DNA of 64,000 nucleotides from an uncultured Oscillospiraceae bacterium (GTDB lineage Bacteria > Bacillota > Clostridia > Oscillospirales > Oscillospiraceae). The position numbers and the translations under genes were made by a program. Under the pieces are notes generated by a model that saw nothing but the letters and a program-made list of their open reading frames with translations, was not told the DNA's origin and made no database searches. The stretch spans positions 36,286 to 100,285 of the forward strand of contig CANRFC010000006.1 in NCBI GenBank assembly GCA_947629795.1, given 5' to 3'. Positions 24,651-49,506 of this stretch are shown one piece after another. The stretch's first letter is position 1; each line of letters begins with the position of its first letter.

Positions 24651-24867
24651 TCCCAGGGCCCGGAAGAGGGAAAGGCCGCAGGGGCCCGGCGGAGTGACAA
24701 GATCGAGGCAAGGGGCCTTACTTGACAGGACTTGGAAGCGGGAAAGAGCGTGCAGGGCCGGTGGAGTGATAGCGAGCAAGGAATTTCACTTGCCAGGCTC
24801 CGGGAGCGGGAAAGACAACGGGGCCCGGGGAAGAGCCCGAAGACCACGGAGAAAGGAGGGCTGGAGG

Positions 24868-27800: not shown

Positions 27801-30800
27801 GGTGTTCGGCGGCGGAGACCAGTCCGGCGCTGTGGTCACCGGGGATACCACGGTCACGGTCTCGGGCGGCGTTGTGGGCACCAATGTCTACGGCGGCGGC
27901 GACCTGGCGCCGGTGGAAGCCAATGGCAGTACGGGCGGCTCCGCCACGGTGAACCTCTCCGCCGGGACGGTGAAGGGCAACATTTACGGCGCCGGGCGGG
28001 GCGGAGACAAGGTGGAGGATGTGGCCCCCGTGGCCCGGAAGACCACCGTCAACATCACCGGCGGCACGGTGGGCACCGCAGTGGGCGACGAGACGGCCTA
28101 TGGGGACGTCTTCGGCGGCGGCGAAAAGGGTAACGTGGGTGAGACCGGCGGGACAGAAGCGGTCTCCACCCAGGTAAATCTCTCCAACGGCGTGGTCCTG
28201 GGCAGCGTCTACGGCGGCAGCGACCGGGGCCAGGTGGGCAAGGGCACTGTCAACGTGGAGGCCGCCACTGTGGCCGAACAGATGACAGTGAGCCTGAGGG
28301 GCTCCACCACAGTGAATATCTCCGGCGTGAGCGACGTGGGCGGCAGCGTCTTCGGCGGCGGAAAGGGCCTGGACGAGGGCGCCACCGGCGGCGGCCTGGG
28401 CGCGGTGTTCGGCGACGCCACGGTGAATATCACCGGCGGCACCGTGCGGCGGCACGTCTTCGGCGGCGGGAGTATGTCCCGGACGGCGGGGAGCACTGCG
28501 GTGGATGTGAATTCCAGCACCGGGGCGGTCACTGTCGAGGAGACCATCTACGCCGGCGGCAACGGCGCGGGCACCACGTTCGACGAGGGAAAGTTCCTGG
28601 TCTACGGGGATTCCACCGTCTATGTGGAAAAGACGGACCATGAACTGACCCTGAAGGGCAGCATCTTCGGCTCGGGCAACCTGACGAGAGTGCTGGGAAG
28701 GCGGAGCCTGACCATCAAGGGGCCGGAGGGGGAGAAGTGGGCCACCTCGGTGGACTCCCTCCAGCGGGCCCACACGGTGACCATCCAGAACTGCGACCTC
28801 ACCCTCAACGGGGCGGGAGACAAGGTGGACGGCACCAACCAGCATTACTCCATGGCCCAGGTGAAGGACGCCCTGACCTCCGAGACCTCCGGCGGCACCA
28901 TTCCGGCGGATGTGGGGGTCAGGCTCATCCACGCCAACCTCACCGCCATGACGGGGCTCAACGAGGTGGCAGCCTTCCGGAGCTATCAGGCCGACGGAGT
29001 CACCCCCGCGACGAAGGAGGATGGGAACGTGCTCACCATCCAGGCAGGGAAGCTGCTGGCCTTCGGCGTCACCAACGCCGACGGGACCTTCTTCTACGGC
29101 CCGGTGGAGGGGGTCACCACCCTGAGGTGGCAGGGAAAGGAAGGGGACATGAAAAACGGCGTGTTCGTCCACGCCGATACCGAAAGCAAGATCGGCGATC
29201 CCAGCGTTAAGGATGAAACCACCGGCGCGCAGGTGGATACCGGCGCCTTTGTGGCGGCGGAGGACCAGAAGATGCCCGAGGGCTATTCCCTCCGCTCCGG
29301 CCCGCCTGCGGGCGTGGCCTGCAGCTACCACTACTGGCAGTTGGGCGGCAACGCGGTCACCCACACCCAGACCCTGAAGCTGAAGGACACTACGCCGGAT
29401 GCTGACGGCTATTACGAGGATACGCTGACCATCCGGCTGCACATAGAGGTGCCGGCGGGCACGGAGTTCGTGGCGATGGACCCCAACGTGGTGGAGTTTT
29501 CGCCCATCCTGACGGAGAACGGGGAGAACGTCTTCTCCCTCAACGTGCTCCAGGGGGAGACGGGGGACGCCGCCGCGGTCCAGTGGAAGGATACTTACCA
29601 CAGCCTGAAGATCGTGAATACGGTCACAGGTGATGTGACCAGCTCGGACCAGGCAAATTTCGTGTACAGCGCCCACCCGGACGGTTCGGTCCACAACCCG
29701 GTGACCACCAGCGCGGGCGTGGCTCAGTTTACAGTCTCCCTGAAATACAAGGACCTGGAGATCTCGGGGGGCAAGGTCAGCTTTACTCTGGTGGCCCATC
29801 CGGAAGGAGCGGACAAGGCCGACGACAGCCTGGGCCGGTTCACCGTGGTGGTGGACGTCATCGGCCAGGGCAAGGGCCGCTCCACCGGCCGGGCTATGGC
29901 CGGGCGGCAGTATGACCGGTTCTACGCCGCCGACACCCCCACGCCCACCATTGCCGGCGACGACGTGGTCAGCGTCCAGGTGGTGCTGAACTATACCCCC
30001 CAGCTGGTACAGGGAGAGACGGACGAGGCCAAGTACCCCGTCATCTCAGTCTACGACAAGTCCACGGGAGCGCCGGTGAGCGGCAGCGTCCGGGTCCTGA
30101 TGGCCGATCTGGCGTCTCCCTCGGCCCCCAAGTGGTACACGGGGACCATGGAACAGGGGAAGCTGATCGCCATGCATCTGACCAACGTCCGGCACGGAAA
30201 CCTCTGGGTGCCCCCCACGGCGGGCCAGGAGGTGGTGGACAAGTCCCTCATCTTCCTGCTGGATTTCCAGGAGGGAGCGCTGGCCAACGGCGAGTATTAC
30301 TTCTATCTGGAGTTCCCGCTGAAGAGCTGCGAGCCTTGCAGAGTGCCCTTTGAGGTGAGGGACTCGGGAGTGGGAACGCTGAGCTGGTCGGGGTCCTCCG
30401 ATGCCGGGAAGGCCACCCTCACCGTCGGCTCCCCCGCCGACAACGCGGACTATGCCGACGGAGCCCTGGTGCGGCTCACCGGCCTGACCGGGGAGGAGGC
30501 GGGGAGAGTCACGGCTGCCGACGCCAGTGGCAGGCCTCTGGAGCTCATGGCCGGGAAGGGAGCCATCTTCCTCCGGCTGCCCGGCCTGGCCCAGGGAGGA
30601 ACGGCAAAGGTGACATGGAGCTTCCCGGGTCTGCAGAGGGAGACTGTCGTCACCGCCGAGCTCTACCCTCTGCCCGTGTTCCAGACCGGCGGCGGGGAAT
30701 CTTCCGCCGCCACAGCGCCGTTGACGCTGAGCAGCACCGGCGGGGGAGAGACGGTGATCTCCGACCGGGCCTTCGTGGTGGAGCTCACAAGTGATAACCG

Positions 30801-31101
30801 GGTGCTGGACAGCGCCGACACCGCCGGCGTCGGGCTGACCTTTGCCATCACCCCGGACCGGGCGCTTGGGGAGGGGGAGAGCATTGTGGTGACCCAACTC
30901 CTGAGAAAGACCGGGACTGCCCCCGGCAACGCCAGCTATACCCAGAAGGTCAGCGGCTGGACCTATGACGCCGCGGCCGGTAAGCTGACTCTGCCCGCAC
31001 TGGAGGCGGGGACCTACCGGATCTGCTTCCAGCTCCAGCGGACCGAGAACGGCGGGACCACGGCCCTGGCCCAGTACCCCTTCAACATCATCGTGCACTG
31101 A
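24868..31101 (+). CDS. Giant secreted multidomain protein (~2080 aa), probable adhesin
   Basis: Sec signal ending ARA; BspA/LRR-like start (VVIPEGVTGLGDCLF); low-complexity acidic repeats; >10 (V/I)(Y/F)GGG beta-helix repeats; Ig-like C-terminus; no LPXTG or C-terminal TM. Confidence 0.75.
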   Translation: MQRYTPLHRVTSVLVAAALLSSLLTLSLTRARADKAPERIDVGPELTAVLTADGVLTLEGTGRSDDFTPETAPLTAYADQIKAVVIPEGVTGLGDCLFYGCYGLTGTLELPGTLVELGDRVFSGPDREHAPRFTYIFNDFTSCEEVLAPESVVPTESVVPTESVVPAESVMPSESVVPSESVMPSESAAPAESVVPTESVSPSESAAPAETPEPTESVLPGESVKPSESVKPGESVTPTESAMPSESAAPAETPKPVETPVPEETDRAEVSAPPAASEKPAESALPAEEPTPAQAESAAPGAAEGLTEDSRGDEVTIDDPEPALAPEPGEEVSDGSSTEGVETAAGASETSGEGEKAPTEVTAQDETQGAGEEPGLDESQSADEEPGLDETQGTGEEPGLDETQGTGEEPGLDEPQGAVETPASGVSGSAGEEYRVETRDAQSVGEEIFYPAAQGERTGLFLCTLENLSFLQAAVEGGYGLADGEFSLYLIPGEGEGELLTIRALALDGQAIAPACPESFGPPAEDRTFLGWLTMEGEEVCAPGESFPVDLETGEGALCAYWGTATLEIAAEGDYPYAPWPEGLTAPLTLEGEPTGLPNGYDTAIVFDGWAVLDAAGNKTGTVVDPGDRIDPGTRLEAQWAWAVVGYMSKMNTTYLSVAMENLSKNSETSTDKYRNIIVVDRSNTQLYKNGWLLSPANDQLPSLACTVTGFDPVEKKQYDYLLSTDSYVLSDEYKFARLSNSMIFHDISLSANHGDAFKDFGVGYYDGLYACSNKLVMGFGVNVTGTLNLFGGAGGGVGAETLTKSAQMNIFSGTYQRLYGGSFRVAMTGCDRTLNFLGGETNYLFGGGYQKGRTTSGTSNVYIAGGTVKNDVFASSDQGTVNGSASLVIAGSTATVTGNVYGGGNSATMTGDTSITMAGGIVDGSVYGGGDLAIMTGNTSITVEGGTVNGSVFGGSNQAALTGNTTIEVKGGEVLGSVFGGGDQSGAVVTGDTTVTVSGGVVGTNVYGGGDLAPVEANGSTGGSATVNLSAGTVKGNIYGAGRGGDKVEDVAPVARKTTVNITGGTVGTAVGDETAYGDVFGGGEKGNVGETGGTEAVSTQVNLSNGVVLGSVYGGSDRGQVGKGTVNVEAATVAEQMTVSLRGSTTVNISGVSDVGGSVFGGGKGLDEGATGGGLGAVFGDATVNITGGTVRRHVFGGGSMSRTAGSTAVDVNSSTGAVTVEETIYAGGNGAGTTFDEGKFLVYGDSTVYVEKTDHELTLKGSIFGSGNLTRVLGRRSLTIKGPEGEKWATSVDSLQRAHTVTIQNCDLTLNGAGDKVDGTNQHYSMAQVKDALTSETSGGTIPADVGVRLIHANLTAMTGLNEVAAFRSYQADGVTPATKEDGNVLTIQAGKLLAFGVTNADGTFFYGPVEGVTTLRWQGKEGDMKNGVFVHADTESKIGDPSVKDETTGAQVDTGAFVAAEDQKMPEGYSLRSGPPAGVACSYHYWQLGGNAVTHTQTLKLKDTTPDADGYYEDTLTIRLHIEVPAGTEFVAMDPNVVEFSPILTENGENVFSLNVLQGETGDAAAVQWKDTYHSLKIVNTVTGDVTSSDQANFVYSAHPDGSVHNPVTTSAGVAQFTVSLKYKDLEISGGKVSFTLVAHPEGADKADDSLGRFTVVVDVIGQGKGRSTGRAMAGRQYDRFYAADTPTPTIAGDDVVSVQVVLNYTPQLVQGETDEAKYPVISVYDKSTGAPVSGSVRVLMADLASPSAPKWYTGTMEQGKLIAMHLTNVRHGNLWVPPTAGQEVVDKSLIFLLDFQEGALANGEYYFYLEFPLKSCEPCRVPFEVRDSGVGTLSWSGSSDAGKATLTVGSPADNADYADGALVRLTGLTGEEAGRVTAADASGRPLELMAGKGAIFLRLPGLAQGGTAKVTWSFPGLQRETVVTAELYPLPVFQTGGGESSAATAPLTLSSTGGGETVISDRAFVVELTSDNRVLDSADTAGVGLTFAITPDRALGEGESIVVTQLLRKTGTAPGNASYTQKVSGWTYDAAAGKLTLPALEAGTYRICFQLQRTENGGTTALAQYPFNIIVH
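25315..25640 (+). repeat. 18-nt coding tandem repeat (ESVVPT-type)
   Basis: GAGAGCGTGGTGCCTACC twice exact, then degenerate copies. Confidence 0.85.
25981..26121 (+). repeat. 36-nt coding tandem repeat x4 (EEPGLDETQGTG)
   Basis: Units start at 25981, 26017, 26053 and 26089. Confidence 0.9.
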
Positions 31102-31151: not shown

Positions 31152-31198
31152 ATGACCTCCTGCCTTTGACAGACAGTCCTTCAAAGGCGGGAGGCCAT
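31152..31198. repeat. Palindromic element, copy 1
   Basis: ATGACCTCCTGCCTTTGA-11nt-TCAAAGGCGGGAGGCCAT; a homologous copy lies at 37575-37624. Confidence 0.8.
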
Positions 31199-37574: not shown

Positions 37575-37624
37575 ATGACCTCCTGCCTTTGGTAAGATAA
37601 TACCATCAAAGAGCAGGAGGTCAT
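37575..37624 (+). promoter_or_regulatory. Palindromic element, copy 2, enclosing an extended -10 and the RBS of the vWA gene
   Basis: ATGACCTCCTGCCTTTGG-TAAGATAATACCA-TCAAAGAGCAGGAGGTCAT; TGnTAAGAT in the loop; AGGAGG at 37615-37620. Confidence 0.7.
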
Positions 37625-38338: not shown

Positions 38339-38388
38339 TTTTGGCGGATCTAAAGGTAACTTGAGTTCTCGACCTCTCGGATGCGAAC
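38339..38388 (-). repeat. Decayed copy of the tRNA-Ala 3' half (distal att site)
   Basis: 21-bp exact match CTCGACCTCTCGGATGCGAAC (38368-38388 = 49456-49476); alignable with mismatches out to the CCA end. Confidence 0.85.
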
Positions 38389-38573: not shown

Positions 38574-40367
38574 TTAGGACCTTGATTCTGTTGCATTATT
38601 GCCCATTGGGTTAGACTCTTTATAGTAATATGGATTGAAACCGCTCTTTTTTTCAGAAACTAACTCAGTCGAACGGGCTGGGGTAATGGCCAAGTCGGCA
38701 CTGGCTTCATCATCAAAAATAATAATTTGAAAATCATCTGGGGATATGTCATCGTATGCACCATGGATTACCTTTCCAATAGCCATTTTGTTTTTGAAAT
38801 CAAATGGCTTAGAAATATGATCAATAATTAAAATGGGGATGAGGGGATACCGATCCTCTGCGATAAGCATTTTAAGAAAAGCCAAATAGCCACATAGTTG
38901 AATCAATGTGCGCCGGGCCATACTGCCTGTATAGTAATTTCGTTTTGATTTATCAGTGCTGTCAGTTGAGTCAATTTGAGGTTGAAGAACATTGCCGCTT
39001 TTGATATACGAAATCTGGAACCCCTGATTTTGGAAATCCTGATCCGATAGGTCAGATACATCGATGGATTTCTTATAAAGCCGAGTGATTTCATTTGATA
39101 GTAGGTTGATCTTTTGAGTGTCGTTGCTATTTTGTAAAGCCCGAAGTTCTTCTCGTATTCCTCTTAGTTTGCGGCGGATAATAGAAATATTATCGTCAGA
39201 TTCTATATCATCCCGGTAATAGTCTAAATATTCTTTTATAAGCGTGATTGCACGAGCTTTATCTGAAACTGAATAGATTTTGTAGTATGACTTCATGGAG
39301 AGAATCTGTTCACGAATTTGCTCGCGCTGTTTCTTCAACTCTTTTATAGTGTTTTCCTGGATGAAATATTTATTGAAAGAAATACTGCGATTTAGCTCCT
39401 CTGTTAATTTAATAATTGGTTCCGCCAAATAGCTGTAAGAAACTTCAGATTCAATGATTGCATGCAATTTCTCCAAAAGCGCAATCTGCTTGCGACTATC
39501 ACTTTCAAATGCGCGGTGATCATTCTCGATATTTTCTTGTCGCTTAATTTGCTCATCAAGACTGGTATATATTGCCTCCAATTCAGTAATTGTTAAACCT
39601 CTGTTGATAGTTTCCGATTTCTTAATTTCTGACTGAAAACTATCAATTAGAAGTCGGATATCAGTTGCGTTTTGCCCAGTAAAAACTTTCCTTATGCCAA
39701 GAATTTTTAGCTGGGTGTTAATTCGCAATCTGGTTTCGTTATTTTGTGCTGATATTTTTTCATGATTGTCTAACCGCTCTTTTAATTGAGCTTCTTGATC
39801 CGTCAATTCCTTAATTCGGGCTAAGTTTTTGTTAAACACATAGTTAATAATTGAAGGCAATTTTAGCGCATACTTAATATCAGTGGCTTTATCCCAAAAA
39901 TCATTAAGGATACCTTGTCTGGTTTCACCTAAGAAGTTGAATAGAGTAAATACTCTGTAGCTTACATCTTCTTCGACGAAAGTTCGTAATTCTTTCAGGG
40001 CTTCTTGACTTTGGGAAAAAACTTGGTTCAGTCTTACCCGATACTCGCTGTTACGAATCGGCTCCCCTCGATTTTCATCAGCATAATAGAAATAGTTTTT
40101 GTTTGGCAATTCTATATAGCGTTCGAGTACATAAGTCAATTCGTCTTTTACAAATATCATTTTAGCGTGATCAAGGGAGCCTTGATACCATTCCTTGCTT
40201 TGTAGCTCCACATTTGCACCGAACATATAATCCAAAAACAAATAAAATTCTGTTTTGCCAGAATCGTTTTTTCCACGAAAATAATTGATTCCTGCACTGA
40301 AGTGATATGTATATGGATTGAGGTGCGTTTTAGTGGGATACAAAGTTAGGCTGATAATTCTAAACAA
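38574..40367 (-). CDS. SMC/ABC-type coiled-coil ATPase (LmuB-like, ABC three-component system)
   Basis: TTG start after GAGGTG; Walker A GKNDSGKT; central coiled coil; TGSMARR signature; Walker B LIIDH. Confidence 0.75.
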   Translation of the reverse strand: MFRIISLTLYPTKTHLNPYTYHFSAGINYFRGKNDSGKTEFYLFLDYMFGANVELQSKEWYQGSLDHAKMIFVKDELTYVLERYIELPNKNYFYYADENRGEPIRNSEYRVRLNQVFSQSQEALKELRTFVEEDVSYRVFTLFNFLGETRQGILNDFWDKATDIKYALKLPSIINYVFNKNLARIKELTDQEAQLKERLDNHEKISAQNNETRLRINTQLKILGIRKVFTGQNATDIRLLIDSFQSEIKKSETINRGLTITELEAIYTSLDEQIKRQENIENDHRAFESDSRKQIALLEKLHAIIESEVSYSYLAEPIIKLTEELNRSISFNKYFIQENTIKELKKQREQIREQILSMKSYYKIYSVSDKARAITLIKEYLDYYRDDIESDDNISIIRRKLRGIREELRALQNSNDTQKINLLSNEITRLYKKSIDVSDLSDQDFQNQGFQISYIKSGNVLQPQIDSTDSTDKSKRNYYTGSMARRTLIQLCGYLAFLKMLIAEDRYPLIPILIIDHISKPFDFKNKMAIGKVIHGAYDDISPDDFQIIIFDDEASADLAITPARSTELVSEKKSGFNPYYYKESNPMGNNATESRS

Positions 40368-40803
40368 TATTAAGCACCTCTTTCCAAAATTGACGATCGG
40401 TATAGTCTGTACTTTCTTCAATGGTAGCAATCGTGAAAGAACCATAGTCTTCGGCAGATACGCTGGCGGGGTGTTTACAAAGTAGTTCACTTTCATGCAA
40501 TTCACAAAAACCGATTTTTATCAGTAGATCAAGTGACTCAAGAATATATGGCAGCTGTGAGCAAAACTCATCATAGCATCCAGATACTTGCGATAAAAAT
40601 TTGAGGACAAGGTCTGAGCGATTTTTTCCAGTATAGCAGCCACTATGCAAATAGGTAACCTTTTTAATTGTATAACTAAAAGCGGCCAATTTTACAATGC
40701 TCATGCTCCGATGGTAGGCAAGAAGATTTTTGATTATATCACAGTACATACTAACTTGGACGACTTCGATTGCCTTTACAATTTTGGCGTTGTTAGGCAT
40801 CAT
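40360..40803 (-). CDS. Middle component of an ABC-3C / Lamassu-like system (LmuC-like)
   Basis: ~147-aa helical ORF overlapping both neighbours; position between effector and ATPase. Confidence 0.6.
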   Translation of the reverse strand: MMPNNAKIVKAIEVVQVSMYCDIIKNLLAYHRSMSIVKLAAFSYTIKKVTYLHSGCYTGKNRSDLVLKFLSQVSGCYDEFCSQLPYILESLDLLIKIGFCELHESELLCKHPASVSAEDYGSFTIATIEESTDYTDRQFWKEVLNIV

Positions 40804-41950
40804 TTCCTTCATCCTTCCATGAAATTTGATTTGGATTGTCATCTCCTGTTAGATAGATATATGCTCCCCAGCGTGAAAACTCATTCTCAAGATAAGATAT
40901 TGGCATTGTTTTAGTCTTAACTAAGCGCAATTTAGGGCTATCTTTTCCCATTACTTGAAGCTCTATAACAACCCCTTGGTGGTTGTTATAGGCAATCCCC
41001 TCTATTGATGCGATTGTATCACCATGAGCGTCCAATAAATAGTGCTGACGGAAGTTTTCGTAATATTGCTCCCATCTCATATGATTTAATATTTGCTCTA
41101 CCGGTAAGCCGCAATATGCCAATTGTCGATACTCCCTACAGGCCATTAGTGATTCGTCCAGAACAAGAGGCTTGGTGGTTTTGATAAATGCTTGATAATC
41201 AGGATCATATCTGTCGGGTGAGATATCCCTGCAGATTTCTTCACACAATTGTTCAAACTCACTGTTTGTGCATATGTACGGGTTGTGCGCTAAAGCGCAA
41301 TCTATGATGCGAGAGCATATGCGACTAAATAGTTCTTTAATTCTGCGTTCAAAAAACACGGGCCCGATAATTCCGGCAGTCGCATGAAATTCTCGCTGTA
41401 CAACATTTGATAAGGCAGTGTCCACCGCTTCACACACAATTGACTTGTTATTAACAATAAAATTATAGTCCTTTTTGAAACGCTCAAAATCCCCGCTATA
41501 GAGTGTTTTAACTCGCGAAACCAATGCAAGAGGTGCCTCTGCAGATTCTGTAATTATTTTATATTCTTGTTCTGGACCACTGCGAAAGGCAGCCTGGGAC
41601 ACAGTGCGACCCTTTTCTGAATAAAGTATAAAACTGGTAATAGAAGGCTCTGCGTCGTATGCTAATAGCCAATTATATAGTATTTTTCGGCTGATTTCAG
41701 CGCTAACATTTGCCTTTTTAACCTGGACAGCTTTAACGCTTCCATCACTGGCCTTTATGCGTTTGAGACAGTGATCTTCCTGCTTGTCGCTGTTAATAAT
41801 ATCAGTAACGACAACATCATCTAAAGTTTCAAACTCTACTTGTTGCCCTTCATTAGTTTGAGAAAGAAGCAATAAAAACACTTTCATCTGATAAGCAAAG
41901 CCAGAAAGACTGACCAATCCAGAGTTAGTAATACTGCCGTGTGGAGACAT
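40793..41950 (-). CDS. Cap4-like PD-(D/E)XK nuclease effector with a C-terminal domain (LmuA-like)
   Basis: SGFAYQ...EFETLDDVVV...VQVKK nuclease pattern; first gene of the trio. Confidence 0.7.
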   Translation of the reverse strand: MSPHGSITNSGLVSLSGFAYQMKVFLLLLSQTNEGQQVEFETLDDVVVTDIINSDKQEDHCLKRIKASDGSVKAVQVKKANVSAEISRKILYNWLLAYDAEPSITSFILYSEKGRTVSQAAFRSGPEQEYKIITESAEAPLALVSRVKTLYSGDFERFKKDYNFIVNNKSIVCEAVDTALSNVVQREFHATAGIIGPVFFERRIKELFSRICSRIIDCALAHNPYICTNSEFEQLCEEICRDISPDRYDPDYQAFIKTTKPLVLDESLMACREYRQLAYCGLPVEQILNHMRWEQYYENFRQHYLLDAHGDTIASIEGIAYNNHQGVVIELQVMGKDSPKLRLVKTKTMPISYLENEFSRWGAYIYLTGDDNPNQISWKDEGNDA

Positions 41951-42348
41951 ATTAACACCACCCTTACCCAGATGAAAATATCTCAATTAAGAGGCCATGC
42001 AAATTTTTGTATAGACGACCTTATCGCTATGAGCCATATGCCTTATATTAAATTATATGATATCCTGAATATAATTTCAAGTTAATATATGTTGGAATGA
42101 AGTTTCCTGCCTGTTTTAGGTTGAGTCAACGGAAAAAGGAGCACCACCCCGGTCGGCCGCTTAAATACAACCGAGGCAACAAATGCTTGGCAATAAACAA
42201 TGAGAAAGATACTAAAATGAGCCGCTTCCATGAAGATCCAGGATGTGGTCTTAATATAAAAGCGATTGCGAGGGAGTTGTACAGTTTATACTTGGGTTAT
42301 TCGGAAGTGCTTCCAAATGCTTGCTTGGCGAGAAGGCTTCGTTGCAAC

Positions 42349-42394: not shown

Positions 42395-43294
42395 TTAAAA
42401 ATTTTTGATTAAAAGCTCCTTAATATACCCACGGTCATTTGCGACGCTATTAATTTTGCGCTTTGCATCTATTCGCTGCACATCATAATCTGCGTATAAT
42501 TCTTCAAAAAAATCGTCTTCTGGATCAACATTTTTGGGATCTGAATTACTCAAAATAATATATGCACCGCAGGCACCTATTTCCTCTATAAATCCAGCAA
42601 GTTCCTTTTGACAACTATCATCAAATTCGACTTCAGTGTAGGAAATAAAACTATCACGGCCCTTTAGGGGGCGGTAAGGAGGGTCAAGATAAACCAGCGT
42701 GTGGGCATCTATAAAACCTCGGGAGGCAGTATAGTCTCCGCAAACGATCTGAACATCTGAAAGAGCGGCTGAAACGGCTCTGATATTTTCTGCATGGCAA
42801 ATTAGAGGATTAGCCTGATTCCCTTGTGGAACATTAAATAGGCCTTGACGATTTGCTCGATAAAGGCCATTGAAGCAAGTGCGGTTCAAGAAAATGAACA
42901 ACGCTGCACTTTTGATGCCTTTTTTACTTTCTCCACTTTGGATAAGATGGTTAAAATCCGTTCGCCTTTCGTAGTAATACTTCTTGCGAGCATCGGCGTC
43001 AAGAGACAAGTATTCCTTTTGGTATGTACCCAGCATTGCAATGAGGGACTCTGGCTGATCTCGAACCATCAAATACATATTAATTAGTTCAGCGTTGACA
43101 TCACTGATATACACTTCGTCTAATTCGTATTTAGAAAGAATGTCAAAAAGAACGGCGCCTCCGCCCACAAAGGGTTCTGCATATCGGCGTATAGTATTCC
43201 CAAAGCCCGGGGGATATGCATGGGAGATATCACCTAACAGCTGTGTCTTTCCTCCTGCCCATTTTAGAATAGGCTTTGGAACTTGCCGCTGCAC
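42395..43294 (-). CDS. Dam-family (D12 class) N6-adenine DNA methyltransferase
   Basis: KWAGGK, YAEPFVGGGAV, FNGLYR, VYLDPPY; GTG 43294 lies 7 nt after GGAGG. Confidence 0.93.
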   Translation of the reverse strand: MQRQVPKPILKWAGGKTQLLGDISHAYPPGFGNTIRRYAEPFVGGGAVLFDILSKYELDEVYISDVNAELINMYLMVRDQPESLIAMLGTYQKEYLSLDADARKKYYYERRTDFNHLIQSGESKKGIKSAALFIFLNRTCFNGLYRANRQGLFNVPQGNQANPLICHAENIRAVSAALSDVQIVCGDYTASRGFIDAHTLVYLDPPYRPLKGRDSFISYTEVEFDDSCQKELAGFIEEIGACGAYIILSNSDPKNVDPEDDFFEELYADYDVQRIDAKRKINSVANDRGYIKELLIKNF

Positions 43295-43455
43295 ATACGT
43301 CACCTCCCAGAATGGCGATATTTACTTAAGTGTAACACAAGTCGTCTGAAATTGGAACAGATTTTAAGAACTTTGTTTGGACATTGAGTTACATTGCGGC
43401 TGCAGCAGCTTGAAGATAATATAGGAAAAATATTTTAAAAAAATTACAAAAATAC

Positions 43456-43484
43456 TTGACAAATATTTTGCTATATAGTATCGT
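43456..43484 (+). promoter_or_regulatory. Sigma-A promoter of the GHKL operon
   Basis: TTGACA-17-TATCGT; an alternative TGnTATATA is also present. Confidence 0.55.
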
Positions 43485-43507
43485 ATGGGTGACGGAGGTG
43501 TCGAATT

Positions 43508-43729
43508 ATGGCTGTAGATAAAAAGGCAAATTTTATTAGGATCGCGGAGGCAAGAACAAATAGAATTATTGAAAGTATTGCGCAATTAGGGAATTTGTCT
43601 AACACGTCCTATTACGAATATACACCTGAGCAGATAGAGGCAATATTTGCGGCCATTCAAGCCGAACTGGATAACCAGAAAAAGCGGTTTTCTGAAAAAA
43701 CATCTAAAAGAAAAAGATTTCGTCTGTGA
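43508..43729 (+). CDS. Small basic helical protein, first gene of the GHKL operon
   Basis: GGAGGTG RBS; 73 aa; amphipathic helices and a basic C-terminus. Confidence 0.75.
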   Translation: MAVDKKANFIRIAEARTNRIIESIAQLGNLSNTSYYEYTPEQIEAIFAAIQAELDNQKKRFSEKTSKRKRFRL

Positions 43730-43743
43730 GGAGGGTGAAATAA

Positions 43744-45672
43744 ATGAGTGAAAAAATGTGGAGATTTCCCGATAATCGGTACACAAACGAGAACGGCCTT
43801 GATACCAGTGATATGGAGACATTTAAGAAGGATCCGGTATCTTCGCTGGCGAGAGAGATCTGCCAGAATTCAATTGATGCGGGTTTTCAGAAAAAGCCTG
43901 TTCGAGTGGTCTTTAGTCTGTTTCAGGTTGGACGGGAGGAAATTCCTGGTGTTGATGAGTTAGAAAAACAAATTACGGCTTGTTATGAGTATAAAAAAGG
44001 GTCTCCCAAAGAAGGGCCGGCACTGGCTGAACTGAAAAAATCCATTAAGAAATCAAAAATTACGTGTCTTCGGATTAGTGATTTTAATACGACAGGGGTT
44101 GAGGGAGCGACAACCAACAAGCGAGGGACTCCGTTTTATAATCTGACCAAAGGTTCGGGTGTCAGTGATAAAGGCGGAAGTATGGGTGGGTCCAAGGGTA
44201 TTGGAAAATTCGCATCCTTTGTAGTAAGTAATACAAATACTGTTTTTTATTCCACGCGCGCAAAGGACGGTTCCTGCGCTCATATTGGAATAAGCAAACT
44301 TCGTTCGACTCCAATCCCTGGCGAGGATACCGACCTTCTTACTATGGGGATCGGATACTATGGGATTAGCGAGAAAAACCTTCCCATTATGGAAGAAATC
44401 CACCTTGATAGGGGATTTAGCCGCGGCGAGAAGGAATATGGCACAGATGTGTATATTATTGGATTTAATGCTTTCAGAGGATGGCAGAGTGACATCATAG
44501 CAAAAGTTTTGGAAAGTTTTATGGTTGCCATTGTTCGTGGAGATCTGGAAGTCGTTGTTAATAATATCTCCGTCAATGCAAATACTGTGAGAGAGATCAT
44601 CTATGGGGATGAGTTTCAGAATGAGCGCACGCGGACAGAGGTGCGCGAGATTCGAGCGCAATACGAGTTGTTACAAGATGATGAGTCAGTAGCAGTACAG
44701 GAGATTCAAATTGATGAAGACAATTCCGCCACCGTTTACATAAAGCGATACGGGCAGACAGATGAGATGGCCGCCACGAGACACTGCGTGATGGTGAGAT
44801 ACCCATACATGAAAATCATGTATATACGGCCTGGGGCTTACCTTCCGTTTTCTGCGCTTTGTGTCATTCATGACAATGATCTCAATAAGAAGTTGCGGGC
44901 AATTGAAAACCCTCAGCATACTGATTGGGAAATTAAGCGACTGAATGATTTCCCTGATGAAAAAAGGGAGACCAGGAGAATGAAGAAAGAGTTAGAGCAA
45001 GCGGTTACTGAATTTATTCGGAGTACTCTTCGTGAGAGCTCCGGGGAGTCGACAGACATAGAAGGTGCTGGAGAGTTTTTGCCTTCACAGGATGAACTCG
45101 GAAGTGTCGCTGGGAGCGCAGTTACAGATGAACAGGTGCAACTCCGCCCAGTTTCCGCAGTGAAAGTGCAGACTCCCAAGACCGTAAAAGCAGGGGAACG
45201 CGGCGAAAGCTATGAATTCGCCGATGGTGATCTAACGGACAACGGGGAGGGCGGGAAAATGCTCAAGAAGAAAAAGAAGCCGGAACCGCAGCCAAATCCC
45301 GAGCCGAAGTCCGAGCCGAAAGGCAGTACCGAAGTAGAGCCAGGCAAGTCACCAGTGCTCAAAAAGGTTCCGCTTAGTGGTATGCGTTATCGTACGGTAG
45401 TTACAGACAAAACCAGTGGGAAGTATGATTGTATTTTTACTTCCCAATACGATGAGAGCGATTGCGAATTTGCCATTCGCCTTTGTGGAGAGGCGGCAGA
45501 TAAGTATCCCATAGAGATCAAATCTGCCTCAATTGATGGCGTAGATTGTGAAGTTGTAAAAGGTAAAATTGTTGGAATGAAGATTGAGAAAGGAAAAACT
45601 TATAAGATATCATACTCCGTGAATAGTAGCGAAATGTTTGCGAGTGAGGTGATTTTAAGTGCAAATCGGTAA
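43744..45672 (+). CDS. GHKL (MORC/Hsp90/MutL-like) ATPase with an uncharacterised C-terminal region
   Basis: N box REICQNSIDA, G1 ISDFNTTG, G2 GGSKGIGKFASF. Confidence 0.8.
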   Translation: MSEKMWRFPDNRYTNENGLDTSDMETFKKDPVSSLAREICQNSIDAGFQKKPVRVVFSLFQVGREEIPGVDELEKQITACYEYKKGSPKEGPALAELKKSIKKSKITCLRISDFNTTGVEGATTNKRGTPFYNLTKGSGVSDKGGSMGGSKGIGKFASFVVSNTNTVFYSTRAKDGSCAHIGISKLRSTPIPGEDTDLLTMGIGYYGISEKNLPIMEEIHLDRGFSRGEKEYGTDVYIIGFNAFRGWQSDIIAKVLESFMVAIVRGDLEVVVNNISVNANTVREIIYGDEFQNERTRTEVREIRAQYELLQDDESVAVQEIQIDEDNSATVYIKRYGQTDEMAATRHCVMVRYPYMKIMYIRPGAYLPFSALCVIHDNDLNKKLRAIENPQHTDWEIKRLNDFPDEKRETRRMKKELEQAVTEFIRSTLRESSGESTDIEGAGEFLPSQDELGSVAGSAVTDEQVQLRPVSAVKVQTPKTVKAGERGESYEFADGDLTDNGEGGKMLKKKKKPEPQPNPEPKSEPKGSTEVEPGKSPVLKKVPLSGMRYRTVVTDKTSGKYDCIFTSQYDESDCEFAIRLCGEAADKYPIEIKSASIDGVDCEVVKGKIVGMKIEKGKTYKISYSVNSSEMFASEVILSANR

Positions 45673-46588
45673 TCGAATTTTTCCGTACCCTGTTTTGAAT
45701 CGTGATGAGTTCCTCTCCGACTATGTAGCGGGGGCCATATTTAGGTTGGAGTTCGATGTGGGTGAAGACGGGATCCCATTTATTGAAAACGGAGAGGTGA
45801 TATTTAAAAATCTCCATTACACACTCGAAGATGATTCGCTTGCTGAGTTGGTAAAGGAAGGAAAAGTAAGAGGCGCATTTATTGTGGAGTGTTCAGCCTC
45901 TGTGTATAGAAAGCGCTTTGACATCTCTAATATTCCAACGGATCTCCACATTTCTGCGTGCGAACTTAACGGGAATGTTGTAGCATCCTGCTATCTATAT
46001 GCGGTAGAGAGCATTCCTGATTTTAAGAGTGCTGGGTTTGTCCCTGAATATACTGGGTATTCTTTTGAGATTGACAAGTTTGACATTCTTGCTGTAGATG
46101 ATGGATTTAAGTTTAAAGTTGAACTTGACCCAACGGAGGATGATAAGGTAGCTTCTATCTTTACCGTGGTAAAAAAGGAAAACGAAGATGATGTGATGAC
46201 GTATGCTAACAATGAGAAAAGTATTGTTATCCATCTTCCATCTGCAATCTATGAGGCTTATGATAATATTAAAATGAAAAAAGAGTACAATAATATTGCG
46301 TTTGCCATATTAGCGATTCCGGTTTTGGCAAGTTGCTTAGAAGAAGTTTATACCGAGTGCAGTAGTGACACAATGGAAGAACTCCTCGAAGCACACCCGT
46401 GGTTTCGTGCGGTATGTGTTAGCTATAAGAATAGAACTGGCAAAGAACTGCTTTATGAGGATTTTGTAAGTGCAAATAAGCTTGAACTTGCCCAGATGGT
46501 GTTAAATAGTGCATCCTGCAATGGCCTCAAAGATTTCGGCGATATGCTATTGGGAAGCGTGGAAGAAAGTGGTGATGATGATGAGTAA
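45659..46588 (+). CDS. Uncharacterised protein, translationally coupled to the GHKL ATPase
   Basis: GTG start after GAGGTG, overlapping the upstream stop; starts QIGNRIFPYPVL; beta-rich N-half, helical C-half. Confidence 0.8.
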   Translation: MQIGNRIFPYPVLNRDEFLSDYVAGAIFRLEFDVGEDGIPFIENGEVIFKNLHYTLEDDSLAELVKEGKVRGAFIVECSASVYRKRFDISNIPTDLHISACELNGNVVASCYLYAVESIPDFKSAGFVPEYTGYSFEIDKFDILAVDDGFKFKVELDPTEDDKVASIFTVVKKENEDDVMTYANNEKSIVIHLPSAIYEAYDNIKMKKEYNNIAFAILAIPVLASCLEEVYTECSSDTMEELLEAHPWFRAVCVSYKNRTGKELLYEDFVSANKLELAQMVLNSASCNGLKDFGDMLLGSVEESGDDDE

Positions 46589-47393
46589 AATTCATATTAA
46601 ATACATGACTGATGAGGCGCTGGAGACGTTGAAAGCTAATATCGATGTCATCACCGAAAAGCTGATCGAAAACCCTGACAGCTCTGCATGGTTAAGGAAT
46701 TTTATTCCTTGTGAGCTATATGTTACCAAGAAGTATGAGATTGAAGAATTTGCTCTGCGCCAACCAAAGGATGACAAAGATCGAGAGACGGATATTTATA
46801 ACTCCATTTTGTTATACGAGAGGCTCAAAGATCTTCCCCTCTATGTTTTGACAGATGAACGATTTTGGTGTTGGATGAACTTTGAAATGGGGTACTCGGT
46901 TGCGTTGAAGTATATGCCGGTCAAAAAGAATTCGTCTGTTTTTAAAGACCACTGGCTGCTCACGCAGGGCAAAAGACGCGGCTTGTTCTTTGGCGTTTTA
47001 TCCCGTTGCTACTTTCGAGTTGCACTATCCATTGATTCAGAACTTGATGATCCATACGAATTAACTCGATTTGTTATTGAGAATCCCCTTCGCTTTAGAG
47101 AGTTAACATGGCGCTCGTTTTCCAGCGAGAAAATGATTGTCCTCGGGACATTGAAAGCGGAGAAGCGAGTCCAGGCGGAATTCCCTCAGATTGAGGAAAG
47201 CACAAAGCATTTTGCAGAGATTGCAAAGCACCTGTCAAAATTGGGGAGTGTTATGCTTCTTGACTGTATGACAGAAAGAGACATAGAAGAGTACATATAT
47301 GCGAAATATAAGGCGATGATTGAGGAAGAACTTTCACACCAAGGAGTCTTTGACAAGATTAAAATGGCCTTTGCAAAGGCATATACTCATTAA
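46578..47393 (+). CDS. DUF6339-like helical protein
   Basis: LYERLKDL...TDERFW...DPYELT pattern recalled for DUF6339; overlaps the upstream stop; three tandem ATGs at 46575-46581. Confidence 0.6.
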   Translation: MMSKIHIKYMTDEALETLKANIDVITEKLIENPDSSAWLRNFIPCELYVTKKYEIEEFALRQPKDDKDRETDIYNSILLYERLKDLPLYVLTDERFWCWMNFEMGYSVALKYMPVKKNSSVFKDHWLLTQGKRRGLFFGVLSRCYFRVALSIDSELDDPYELTRFVIENPLRFRELTWRSFSSEKMIVLGTLKAEKRVQAEFPQIEESTKHFAEIAKHLSKLGSVMLLDCMTERDIEEYIYAKYKAMIEEELSHQGVFDKIKMAFAKAYTH

Positions 47394-47433: not shown

Positions 47434-47469
47434 AAGGCCGGGAGCGGGTCGTGATCCGCTCCCGGCCTT
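47434..47469. terminator. Hairpin between convergent genes
   Basis: AAGGCCGGGAGCGG / CCGCTCCCGGCCTT 14-bp stem. Confidence 0.7.
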
Positions 47470-47478
47470 GCTATATCC

Positions 47479-48210
47479 TCACAACTGATCCAGCTTCCGC
47501 GCCACTTCCTCGTCTGTCAGTTCGCCCCGTTCAGATTGAGCCACCAACTCCTGCGCCTGGGCTACGGCGGCGTTCCATTCGTCCACGCTGATCTTGCCTC
47601 TCTGCTTTCGGACTTTCAGGCGGTTGTAGGCCCGGTCGTACTCCCGCTGGGCTGGGGTGCGGTTGGCGCGGCCCTGGGCCTCCTTGCGGTGGGCGCCCAC
47701 TTTGCGGCAGGTGCGCTCGGTCTCGCCGGGGGCGATGTTGTTGCAGTAGCAGGTGTTGTACCCGGCGGTCAGGAGAAAATAGCGTCCGCAGTTGTGACAC
47801 CGCCTCGGAGCATTGCCTGCGGCCAGTCCCCGGTAAAACTCCGTGCGCAAAAAGTCTGTCAGACTGCTGAAGGTGGCCTTCTCCGCGATGAAGATCTTGC
47901 CCGCCTCGGTGGGGTGCATCATAGGCACAAAACTGACCTCCAAGGGGAAGCTCTGCTGGAAGTTCTCGTGAAATATATGGGCGCTGACCGAGAGCATATG
48001 GGCGTAGAAGTAGGAGTAAGCGCCGGCATAGGCGTGGGCGTTCCTCCGCTTCAGCGGCTCGAAGTACTGCTCCGTCATGAGGGCTATCTGCCCCCGCAGA
48101 TCCCGGAGGTCGGTCGCGAAGCAGGTAAAGCCTGCAAGCATTCCCAGAAACATGGCGTAGCCCTCCGAGGTGGGATCCTGTACCTGCGCCCACTTCTCCT
48201 CATCTGCCAT
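47479..48210 (-). CDS. DUF6076-like protein with a Zn-finger (possibly 5'-truncated)
   Basis: RRCHNCGRYFL...CYC...RTCRKVGA Cys cluster; higher GC than its neighbours. Confidence 0.6.
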   Translation of the reverse strand: MADEEKWAQVQDPTSEGYAMFLGMLAGFTCFATDLRDLRGQIALMTEQYFEPLKRRNAHAYAGAYSYFYAHMLSVSAHIFHENFQQSFPLEVSFVPMMHPTEAGKIFIAEKATFSSLTDFLRTEFYRGLAAGNAPRRCHNCGRYFLLTAGYNTCYCNNIAPGETERTCRKVGAHRKEAQGRANRTPAQREYDRAYNRLKVRKQRGKISVDEWNAAVAQAQELVAQSERGELTDEEVARKLDQL

Positions 48211-48311
48211 GAGCCGCTCAAAGGTGTGGAAATTGCGTAAGCGTCAAATCTAACAGCGTATAAAGACACCGTGCTCGGGGGTGAGCACGGTGTCCTTTTA
48301 CGCGGATAGCT

Positions 48312-48707
48312 TTGACGCTTGCCATCATCGGCCATGTGTCCAGCAGCACCACGCTGAATATCTACGCCCACGTCACCGATGAGATGCGCCGGAGCGCGGC
48401 GGCGAAGATCGACCGGGGGATTGCCAAGGCGGAGGCGCAAGAAGCGGTGGGGGAGAAGGAGAAGCCTGAACCGCTGGAGTTTATCCCCTACAAGCCGCCC
48501 CGCCGCCGTCCGGGAACGGGCTGCGTCAGCCAGTTGGGCGACCATCTATGGGAGGGAAGATACTCCCCGGTCTGGCCCGACGGCAAAAAGCACGCCCGAA
48601 ACGTCTATGCCAAGACGGAAGCCGAGTGCGAGGAGAAATTGAAAGTGCTGATCCGGGAGATGAAAAAGGAGATCGCTCAAGTGAGGGAGAAAACAATGGC
48701 GCGCTGA
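48312..48707 (+). pseudogene. C-terminal remnant of a tyrosine integrase with an AP2-like tail
   Basis: IIGHVSSSTTLNIYAHV (box II His and catalytic Tyr); RRRPGTGCVSQ...WEGRY tail; the R-H-R part and N-terminus are absent. Confidence 0.8.
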
Positions 48708-48718
48708 TAAGTTGAAGA

Positions 48719-49288
48719 CTATTCAATTGGCGGCATAACCTTAAACACGGGGGTGTCTCGATACCGCTGGAATCCGTCTTTACTTTCCCAATTTTTCCAG
48801 TTTTCCTCTATCGATTGGAGATAGTACCATGTGCTGTCATCCCAATCCTCTAAGGATTCTTCCAGATCCATATGGGCTTCGCTCCACGCAAAGTATGCAT
48901 CCATAAGCGGCATAATATCTTCTTTTGCACCGTTGTCCCAATAAAACTTTGAAACGAAGACACAGCTTTCCTCCACCGCAAACCATTCCACTTCGTGGGA
49001 TAGCTCCAGCGCCTTCAGGATTGCTTGAATGGGATATTCCCACCGGGTACAAAATTTGACCTCATATCGCCCATCATCTCGTTTTGCCCAGGAGAAGTCA
49101 AAGCCGTAATAGATGTGTACACCAATCTTTTCCTGATATTCGCTTAAAGACCGAAGGCCAAACAACTTGTTGAATGAAATATATGGTTCGCTCATGGGGT
49201 TATCTGGCCCACAAGGAAAGAAATCGAAGAGGTATGTATCCAGGAAATCCTTGCTGCAAACCACTTTGTTTGAAACATAGTTCGCCAT
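48719..49288 (-). CDS. Hypothetical acidic, aromatic-rich protein
   Basis: ~190-aa AT-rich ORF just downstream of tRNA-Ala; no certain motif. Confidence 0.6.
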   Translation of the reverse strand: MANYVSNKVVCSKDFLDTYLFDFFPCGPDNPMSEPYISFNKLFGLRSLSEYQEKIGVHIYYGFDFSWAKRDDGRYEVKFCTRWEYPIQAILKALELSHEVEWFAVEESCVFVSKFYWDNGAKEDIMPLMDAYFAWSEAHMDLEESLEDWDDSTWYYLQSIEENWKNWESKDGFQRYRDTPVFKVMPPIE

Positions 49289-49393
49289 GTGTGATGTTTC
49301 AGCTCCTTCCATATAATCTTATCGGTTGGGTTAATTATACCACCGCCACCGGTTTTCCGAAACCCTGTCTGTGGTATATATGTGGTCAAACGA

Positions 49394-49430: not shown

Positions 49431-49506
49431 TGGTGGACCTGAAGGGACTTGAACCCTCGACCTCTCGGATGCGAACCGAACGCTCTCCCAACTGAGCTAC
49501 AGGCCC
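49431..49506 (-). tRNA. tRNA-Ala(CGC)
   Basis: GGGCCTGTAGCTCAGTTGGGAGAGCG...TTCGCAT...GGTTCAAGTCCC...CCACCA; G3:U70 pair; 76 nt. Confidence 0.97.

Follow-up and report, generated by a model that had tools for sequence, protein, structure and literature searches.

Organization of the locus

The DNA studied here is a stretch of 64,000 nucleotides from an uncultured Oscillospiraceae bacterium (contig CANRFC010000006.1), called the window in the following, and all coordinates refer to its numbering. It carries a four-gene operon, S-A-B-C, divergent from the gene of a Dam-family methylase (MT). The initial annotation, made from the sequence alone, had described this segment as a candidate defence system built of four tightly coupled genes, the last three overlapping, behind one promoter, ending at a hairpin and standing back-to-back with an adenine methylase. 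All of these elements were recovered, and the divergent gene was confirmed as a Dam-family member. The features of the locus are as follows.

42395-43303, minus strand: MT, Dam-family methylase (list of open reading frames (ORFs), Pfam and TIGR matches)
43304-43507, no strand: intergenic control region between the divergent MT and S (promoter scan, sequence, comparison of loci)
43508-43729, plus strand: S, 73 amino acids (aa), first gene of the operon (ORF list)
43744-45672, plus strand: A, 642 aa, predicted GHKL ATPase (ORF list, PADLOC, predicted fold)
45659-46588, plus strand: B, 309 aa (ORF list, PADLOC)
46578-47393, plus strand: C, 271 aa, DUF6339 by sequence match (ORF list, Pfam, PADLOC; gene callers place the start at 46575)
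47437-47470, no strand: GC-rich hairpin GGCCGGGAGCGG-N8-CCGCTCCCGGCC, a 12-bp inverted repeat between the C stop codon and a convergent DUF6076 gene

A gap of 14 nt lies between S and A, while A and B overlap by 14 nt and B and C by 11 nt. Inspection of the sequence disclosed ribosome-binding sites of the GGAGG type upstream of S and of A, and a promoter scan placed a promoter-like TTGACA-17-TATCGT at 43456-43484, 5' of S. When the control regions of seven related loci were compared, the best-conserved blocks were the -35 and -10 boxes and an AT-rich near-palindrome upstream of them, whose position ahead of the -35 box is compatible with autoregulation. In four relatives (L001, L002, L004, and L064), a 7-bp inverted repeat, GTAATAT-N6-ATATTAC, is conserved about 20 bp 5' of the -35 box of the S promoter and may represent an operator. 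The repeat is degenerate in the window (ATAATAT...ATATTTT, 43420-43445). At the other end of the operon, the hairpin is likely a bidirectional terminator; its T-run lies on the minus-strand side, and termination of the plus-strand operon at this site is therefore something that we infer.

The same MT-S-A-B-C block, flanked by counterparts of the Lamassu-like trio described below, was found on independent metagenome contigs. Near-identical sequences come mainly from rabbit-gut metagenomes. A search for RNA sequencing runs found none usable in support of the operon, the best run containing 6% of the sampled words.

Relation to the PDC-M33 candidate family

A, B, and C match the PDC-M33 models of PADLOC-DB v2 and nothing else in it. 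Their three genes, adjacent, overlapping, and on the same strand, cover PDC-M33A, PDC-M33B, and PDC-M33C over the full length, with E values of 8.2e-145 for A (residues 4-640 on model positions 3-625 of 627), 4.6e-51 for B, and 1.9e-41 for C. The system of the window was first announced as undescribed, a term that does not hold after these matches, although the name exists only for an unpublished and unvalidated candidate, as is the case for PDC-x entries in general (PMC11811056). No paper mentioning PDC-M33, DUF6339 or PF19866 was found, and a literature search on GHKL or MORC proteins in defence returned only VcSduA and the 2008 paraMORC paper. In NCBI, homologues are named "hypothetical protein" or "DUF6339 family protein". 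Based on the model matches, the status of the entry, the lack of a paper, and the names of homologues, the A-B-C trio is catalogued but uncharacterised.

Protein A

The affiliation of A is disclosed by its predicted fold, according to which it is a GHKL ATPase similar to Hsp90, Topo VI-B, and SMCHD1. Pfam gave a marginal match (HATPase_c_3, E = 0.047, 14.2 bits vs a cut-off of 25), and sequence and profile searches of the PDB with A returned nothing meaningful. The AlphaFold model (predicted local distance difference test, pLDDT, 76.7) was aligned by Foldseek over about 450 columns with TRAP1/Hsp90 (3e-6), Topo VI-B (3e-6), SMCHD1 (4e-5), and also with Topo II and GyrB, E values ranging from 3e-6 to 1e-3. 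Among the 50 Foldseek matches listed, none is described as MORC, and MutL is missing.

Conservation was assessed on 125 homologues, down to about 30% identity. The residues of ATP-binding motifs I-IV (E38, N42, D45 of ExxxNxxD; D113, G118, G121 of DxxxxG..G; G149, G152, G154, K155 of the G-rich lid; the conserved Thr, T171) are each conserved in at least 97% of them, so that the three GHKL boxes read earlier in the large protein are substantiated both by conservation and by the structural matches. Affiliation with GHKL proteins thus combines motifs I-IV, seen in the sequence, with a Bergerat fold and a transducer or middle domain, seen in the Foldseek alignments. According to the model, residues 1 to about 434 comprise the Bergerat fold, the transducer-like middle domain, and a long helix. 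The linker that follows is disordered and rich in K, P, and E, and the protein ends in a beta-sandwich at about 530-642.

Besides the four motifs and a few core positions, E388, H392, and W395 are invariant in A, and between I358 and V636 these three are the only universal invariants outside the motifs of the ATPase module. The first two belong to E388-N-P-Q-H392, an ExxxH motif located directly after the middle domain. An ExxxH in this position is the hallmark of paraMORC2 proteins, which occur mainly in Gram-positive bacteria and cyanobacteria, in restriction-modification operons (Iyer, Abhiman & Aravind 2008, PMC2292703), and A is possibly of the paraMORC2 type. We also considered whether the segment ENPQHTDWE holds the MutL-type endonuclease motif DQHA(X)2E(X)4E. 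This assignment was rejected, as D394 and E396 vary and only E388, H392, and W395 are invariant. Neither Pfam nor Foldseek of the model recognised a nuclease fold in A, and Pfam found no DUF4263.

Proteins B, C, and S

B evolves fastest of the components and retains a conserved acidic C-terminal tail. Its invariant positions (P9, Y10, P11, E77, R84, S166, F168, P194, P221, W248, and Q279) are few and do not form a nuclease-like acidic cluster. No Pfam family was detected in any of 15 diverse members scanned singly, and no PDB relative was detected by sequence or profile search. A PD-(D/E)xK site suspected near the residues VECS was discarded, since there is no invariant Asp or Lys and DDG is lost in the clade linked to C5 methylases.

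Judged by its match to PF19866 (7e-34), C is a true member of DUF6339. The AlphaFold model of this protein is confident (pLDDT 87.1, predicted template modelling score 0.83) and mostly helical, with a small N-terminal sheet. Foldseek found no significant match to it in the PDB (best E 0.35) or in BFVD (best E 0.42), and PDB sequence and profile searches with C gave nothing meaningful. The pattern of invariant residues (N21, N75, W97, R133, R134, R143, R179, and D229) suggests nucleic-acid binding more than any known nuclease site. The idea that C is BrxA-like is unsupported: a crystal structure of BrxA has been published, yet C gave no significant match in the PDB.

The C-terminus of S, KRKRFRL, is basic and conserved. 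No Pfam, PADLOC or PHROG family was found for it, except for one insignificant match to PDC-S01, and no phage family in PHROGs matches S, A, B or C. The S family is large, with 1,832 representative clusters (50% identity) at E <= 1e-3, and looks broader than one system. S-like domains were also observed fused to DUF4357 (RAMA-like and associated with restriction enzymes), HIT, and CxxCxxCC domains (P0512, P0444, and P0422); some of these fusions may be assembly artefacts.

Distribution and gene content of related loci

Related loci were collected in a scan of GTDB species genomes anchored on A (80 loci) and in an independent scan of metagenomes anchored on S (80 loci). Homologues of A form more than 1,480 clusters at 90% identity, and the order A-B-C, in which stop and start codons overlap, is kept without exception wherever a locus is long enough to show it. 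These two observations establish the operon as real, far beyond chance. S was detected in 55 of 78 A-anchored loci. Wherever contigs of the S-anchored set are long enough, A-B-C, or X-A-B-C with an optional gene X, comes after S. S is the fourth core component and the best conserved one, with a median pairwise identity of 0.56, followed by A (0.41), C (0.37-0.44), and B (0.35). Co-evolution of A, B, and C is tight (Spearman 0.76-0.86).

Carriers are Clostridia of gut and rumen, Erysipelotrichaceae, Bacilli, Negativicutes, and Anaeroplasma, and include Faecalibacillus intestinalis and Veillonella parvula. Phage contigs are practically free of the system, with 1 match among 2.9 million viral contigs (IMG/VR).

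Accessory genes recur. In 30 loci (e.g. L012:7426-10008), S and A are separated by the optional X, a protein of about 850 aa that contains a helix-turn-helix of the sigma70_r4 type at about residues 248-297 (Pfam 6e-10; phrog_351, sigma factor), together with a weak match to the C-terminus of MzaA (PADLOC 1.6e-5). In Veillonella, X is replaced upstream by a 310-aa protein with a helix-turn-helix in the same position and a 202-aa protein (L037:7772-8704). A 433-aa type II restriction enzyme is present in 14 loci. In addition, a complete DpnM-DpnA-DpnII cassette adjoins S-A-B-C in L010, L034, L060, and L124-L131. In L034 (15378-16507), L096, and L097, S heads such a DpnM-DpnA-DpnII cassette instead of A-B-C, and in L034 this arrangement is convergent to A-B-C. 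This hints that S may serve a methylase or restriction module, for example as a controller.

The survey of homologue neighbourhoods proposed in the initial annotation also returned Gabija, Mrr, type III, and MmeI systems near the relatives. As an illustration, in L031 (13628-17228) GajA (3e-109) and GajB (4e-51) of a Gabija system lie downstream of C, after a 335-aa ORF without a family. A 513-aa DUF3427 protein is inserted between S and A in L060 (8456-9997). A different context was observed in Anaeroplasmataceae (L044, L052, L057, L058, L061, L063, and L069), where A-B-C stands without S and without a nearby methylase. In six of these seven loci, A-B-C is located upstream of a conserved series of genes for a helix-turn-helix protein, CinA, uridine kinase, a weak S_4TM match, and PriA, with a MarR gene in four; the downstream genes of L052 differ from those of the other six. 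This housekeeping-like context is unlike that of all other loci.

Linkage to DNA methylases

The methylase of the window matches PF02086 (1e-52) and TIGR00571 "dam" (5e-75, above its cut-off) and carries a DPPY motif at residue 207. Among proteins of solved structure, DpnM (PDB 2dpm, 4.6e-46) is nearest, followed by E. coli Dam, which makes GATC specificity likely; MT is probably a DpnM-like, GATC-specific N6-adenine methyltransferase. In a classical type II restriction-modification pair, it would be accompanied by its cognate restriction endonuclease. This partner was not found among the ORFs of the window, where there is no homologue either of the DpnII-type enzyme or of the 433-aa type.

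Linkage to methylases was counted in the 45 loci whose flanks extend for at least 3 kb on each side, and 33 of these have a Dam or C5 methylase nearby. The methylase is usually the immediate neighbour, in variable position and orientation (upstream, downstream, or divergent). The tree of A is divided according to methylase class. One deep clade of 24 sequences comprises 20 that are C5-linked and 4 for which no methylase was found, with none Dam-linked; the other clade, to which the window belongs, is Dam-linked. Within it, the clade of the window (about 15 tips, representing independent loci) has a divergent methylase beside S-A-B-C and no restriction enzyme. The stable retention of a solitary methylase at this position is most easily explained by selection exerted by S-A-B-C, comparable to that exerted by a restriction enzyme.

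We favour the interpretation that S-A-B-C and its methylase constitute a self-contained, methylation-keyed, ATP-driven defence module of the PDC-M33 family, restriction-like or BREX-like in its action, and rate the chances of this interpretation as about even. Several results weigh against it. No adjacent methylase is present in 12 of the 45 well-flanked loci, which belong to an X-containing clade and to an Anaeroplasma clade, the latter also being without S. The Dam gene does not follow A, B, and C in its divergence (Spearman 0.16, and -0.05 for pairs with A below 60% identity), and without co-phylogeny the methylase does not qualify as a constant partner. Among 31 Dam-linked relatives, 15 have a complete GATC restriction-modification cassette, so that in about half of them the methylase belongs to such a cassette and may not be dedicated to S-A-B-C. 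GATC sites show no depletion, either within the island or in its flanks. Conservation and Pfam scans found no nuclease motif or family in B, and no nuclease or other effector fold was recognised in the predicted structures of A or C; the earlier remark that the three main proteins show no recognisable nuclease is hence borne out, for A and C by fold and for B by motif and family. Finally, the literature reports no experiment on the PDC-M33 family. The methylation-linked, restriction-like machine of the initial annotation is partly upheld: its link to methylation is strengthened by the methylase class, which follows the deep split of the A tree, with the reservation that the methylase gene does not co-evolve with A, B, and C and is not adjacent in every locus.

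The general picture is that the class of methylation is conserved and the methylase gene is interchangeable. This is what would be expected if A-B-C relied on the mark itself, regardless of which methylase protein sets it.

The free exchange of the methylase gene also suits an explanation where S-A-B-C acts as a guard or back-up. Instead of reading DNA methylation, it would monitor the neighbouring methylase or restriction system and trigger abortive infection when a phage anti-restriction factor disables that system. Parallels for such logic are PrrC with EcoPrrI and PARIS with Ocr. S-A-B-C is located beside varied complete cassettes, namely DpnII-type (Dam, N6_N4 methylase, and DpnII), Dam with the 433-aa enzyme, type III Mod/Res, and MmeI-like ones. 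The position of S at the head of the DpnII cassette in three loci and the lack of a recognised nuclease in the models of A and C also agree with a guard. We nevertheless regard it as unlikely: throughout the clade of the window, the window included, the methylase stands alone, without a restriction enzyme that could be guarded, congruence between methylase class and A clade fits only if the guarded object is the methylase itself, and no toxin-like effector was recognised.

The loci without a methylase bear on another explanation, in which A-B-C, with or without S, is an autonomous anti-phage or anti-plasmid system that is independent of methylation, and methylases adjoin it merely through clustering in hot spots of defence or restriction-modification genes. 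Absence of co-phylogeny with A and the variable position and orientation of the methylase agree with this as well. Chance association would, however, mix the classes, yet one A clade is linked almost exclusively to Dam methylases and the other exclusively to C5 methylases, and the methylase is usually the immediate neighbour. We therefore hold independence from methylation to be quite unlikely, and a shade less credible than a guard. Both explanations draw their remaining weight from the clades without methylase and from the missing co-phylogeny, and both are disfavoured by the congruence of class and clade and by the clade that keeps its methylase in the absence of a restriction enzyme.

Proposed mechanism and significance

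Under the favoured interpretation of a methylation-keyed module, the DpnM/Dam-like MT would mark the DNA of the host, with GATC as the probable site. S, A, B, and C would be produced from one translationally coupled operon and would probably assemble into one complex. A is envisaged as an ATP-operated, dimerising GHKL clamp. With its cluster of invariant arginines, C would likely be a general DNA-binding or effector subunit, while the fastest-evolving B would likely be the subunit for specificity or sensing, and S a small regulatory or adaptor subunit. DNA without the mark would be captured in an ATP-dependent manner and then neutralised, which would amount to reading of the methylation state and to an anti-phage or anti-plasmid effect. 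Neutralisation could proceed through a catalytic centre so far unrecognised (the ExxxH pocket of A, the polar cluster of C, or a site in B) or without cleavage, as discussed for BREX. GHKL modules that carry a transducer domain are ATP-driven, dimerising clamps on DNA, with a proposed role in DNA looping in restriction-modification operons (PMC2292703), and in GHKL-Shedu VcSduA the ATPase was shown experimentally to be needed for defence (PMC12137116).

A more specific proposal takes the failure to recognise a nuclease at face value. In it, the GHKL clamp, DUF6339, and B would recognise DNA lacking N6-methyladenine (5-methylcytosine in the sister clade) and exclude or silence it without conventional restriction. 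We consider this nuclease-free system fairly unlikely, although somewhat less so than the guard. If true, one of the new proteins would be a methylation-state reader not known so far, or else a DNA-acting enzyme of a new kind.

The PDC-M33 family is abundant in gut and rumen Firmicutes. Should the methylation-keyed module prove correct, it would be a third architecture of methylation-based discrimination between self and non-self, beside restriction-modification and BREX/DISARM, driven by a GHKL clamp related to the eukaryotic silencers MORC and SMCHD1. Two of its proteins are without known relatives; for one of these, a fold not represented in the PDB is predicted with confidence. Either of the two could represent a novel effector or reader of the methyl state. 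The split into Dam-linked and C5-linked clades offers a natural experiment for locating the determinant of specificity.

Genomic island and neighbouring genes

The operon resides in an island with a GC content of 37-46%, compared with 60-69% in the flanks. Two features delimit it.

38359-38388, no strand: att-like partial copy of the 3' part of tRNA-Ala at the left end (30 nt, 90% identical to 49447-49476)
49431-49506, minus strand: tRNA-Ala(CGC), the integration target, at the right end (ARAGORN)

The left copy coincides with the drop in GC. The tRNA gene and the 30-nt copy of its 3' part at the two ends define the island as an 11-kb tRNA-integrated element, in accordance with the AT-rich, tRNA-integrated island postulated initially. 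A 131-aa ORF at 48312-48707 has no Pfam match and reads like fused C- and N-terminal remnants of a tyrosine integrase, and the integrase of the island appears degraded. Between the operon and the right end, the DUF6076 gene (47479-48210, minus strand) is convergent to the operon, and a 197-aa unannotated ORF adjoins tRNA-Ala (region 47479-49312).

Three overlapping genes of 643, 160, and 397 aa occupy 38574-41986 on the minus strand. PADLOC gave weak matches to LmuA (7.9e-15) and to LmuB (1.2e-6, N-terminus only, AAA_23 / SMC N-terminus), and the middle ORF has no Pfam or PADLOC match. Lamassu combines an LmuA effector with the SMC-like ATPase LmuB and, optionally, LmuC. The trio looks like a divergent Lamassu-like system in the same island; the Lamassu-like designation given to it earlier has its counterpart in the weak matches of two of the genes.

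Outside the island, a block of 51-55% GC is bounded by direct repeats of 17 nt that match perfectly (31152-31168 and 37575-37591). It encodes ADP-ribosylglycohydrolase, NUDIX, and Macro-domain proteins and a 1050-aa protein with PLD-nuclease, SF2-helicase, and DUF3427 domains, while a VWA protein is encoded just outside. Possibly the block is another insertion, a cassette whose theme would be ADP-ribose or NAD. An ORF of 2135 aa (24694-31101, plus strand) is located in the high-GC flank upstream of the island region. Defence neighbours of S-A-B-C in the window are the Lamassu-like trio and the PLD-helicase-DUF3427 protein.

This setting is of importance for the question of whether the system serves immunity at all. 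A methyl-directed module for DNA transactions or regulation, carried on mobile islands and comparable to the strand-discriminating, repair-like or silencing machines MutL/MutH, MORC, and SMCHD1, would share the GHKL fold common to MutL, MORC, and SMCHD1-type DNA clamps, and both the link to Dam methylation and the failure to find a nuclease would suit it. Occasional recruitment of such ATPases to repair has been described (Iyer et al., PMC2292703). The distribution of the family is, however, patchy and island-borne, with defence neighbours, and PADLOC ranks it among defence candidates. MutL, as mentioned, is missing among the 50 structural matches listed for A, and the MutL-like endonuclease motif is not conserved. 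A role outside immunity is accordingly the least probable of the explanations considered, and we regard it as very improbable.

Comparison with known systems

The operon of the window belongs to the PDC-M33 candidate family, as its three proteins match the three hidden Markov models of the entry. The PADLOC model, however, has three genes and does not include S, the methylase, the optional X or the restriction-enzyme genes.

GHKL ATPases are known from restriction-modification operons (PMC2292703), and the closest likeness there is to paraMORC2 (PMC2292703), which shares with A the GHKL domain followed by a transducer-like domain (in the S5 position), the ExxxH motif (E388/H392), methylase neighbours, and mainly Gram-positive hosts. 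The paraMORC operons described in 2008 are centred on SF2 helicases and on nucleases of the restriction-endonuclease fold or of the Vsr type, which are absent here, where the partners are S, B, and a DUF6339 protein. In GHKL-Shedu VcSduA, or paraMORC3 (PMC12137116), a validated system, the GHKL ATPase with motifs I-IV is likewise needed for protection. In VcSduA, the GHKL ATPase and a DUF4263 PD-(D/E)xK nuclease are fused in one protein, while A has no nuclease domain and ends in a beta-sandwich.

Mza (a MutL-like GHKL protein with Z1, AIPR, and DUF3696, usually Dcm-linked) is similar in being a multi-gene, methylase-associated system with a GHKL ATPase, and the helix-turn-helix of the sigma70_r4 type in X of the relatives recurs in the C-terminus of MzaA. 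No Mza model was matched by proteins of the window at E <= 0.1, and genes for Z1, AIPR, and DUF3696 are lacking. BREX offers an analogy at the level of function, with a methylase that marks self, an ATPase accompanied by several small proteins of unclear function, and no recognised nuclease. Homologues of PglX, PglZ, BrxC, and BrxL are not present in the system of the window, and the ATPase is of the GHKL and not of the AAA+/P-loop type. S, A, B, and C gave no PADLOC match to the signature proteins of DISARM (DrmA-C), Druantia (DruA-E), or Tiamat (TmtA). The dissimilarity to Mza, BREX, DISARM, Druantia, and Tiamat, stated in the initial annotation, is therefore corroborated by PADLOC.

The DpnII-type cassette (DpnM-DpnA-DpnB) is related through MT, which is DpnM-like, and through relatives that carry the full cassette beside S-A-B-C. 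In the window there is no DpnII or other GATC enzyme, and S-A-B-C occupies the place of the restriction enzyme.

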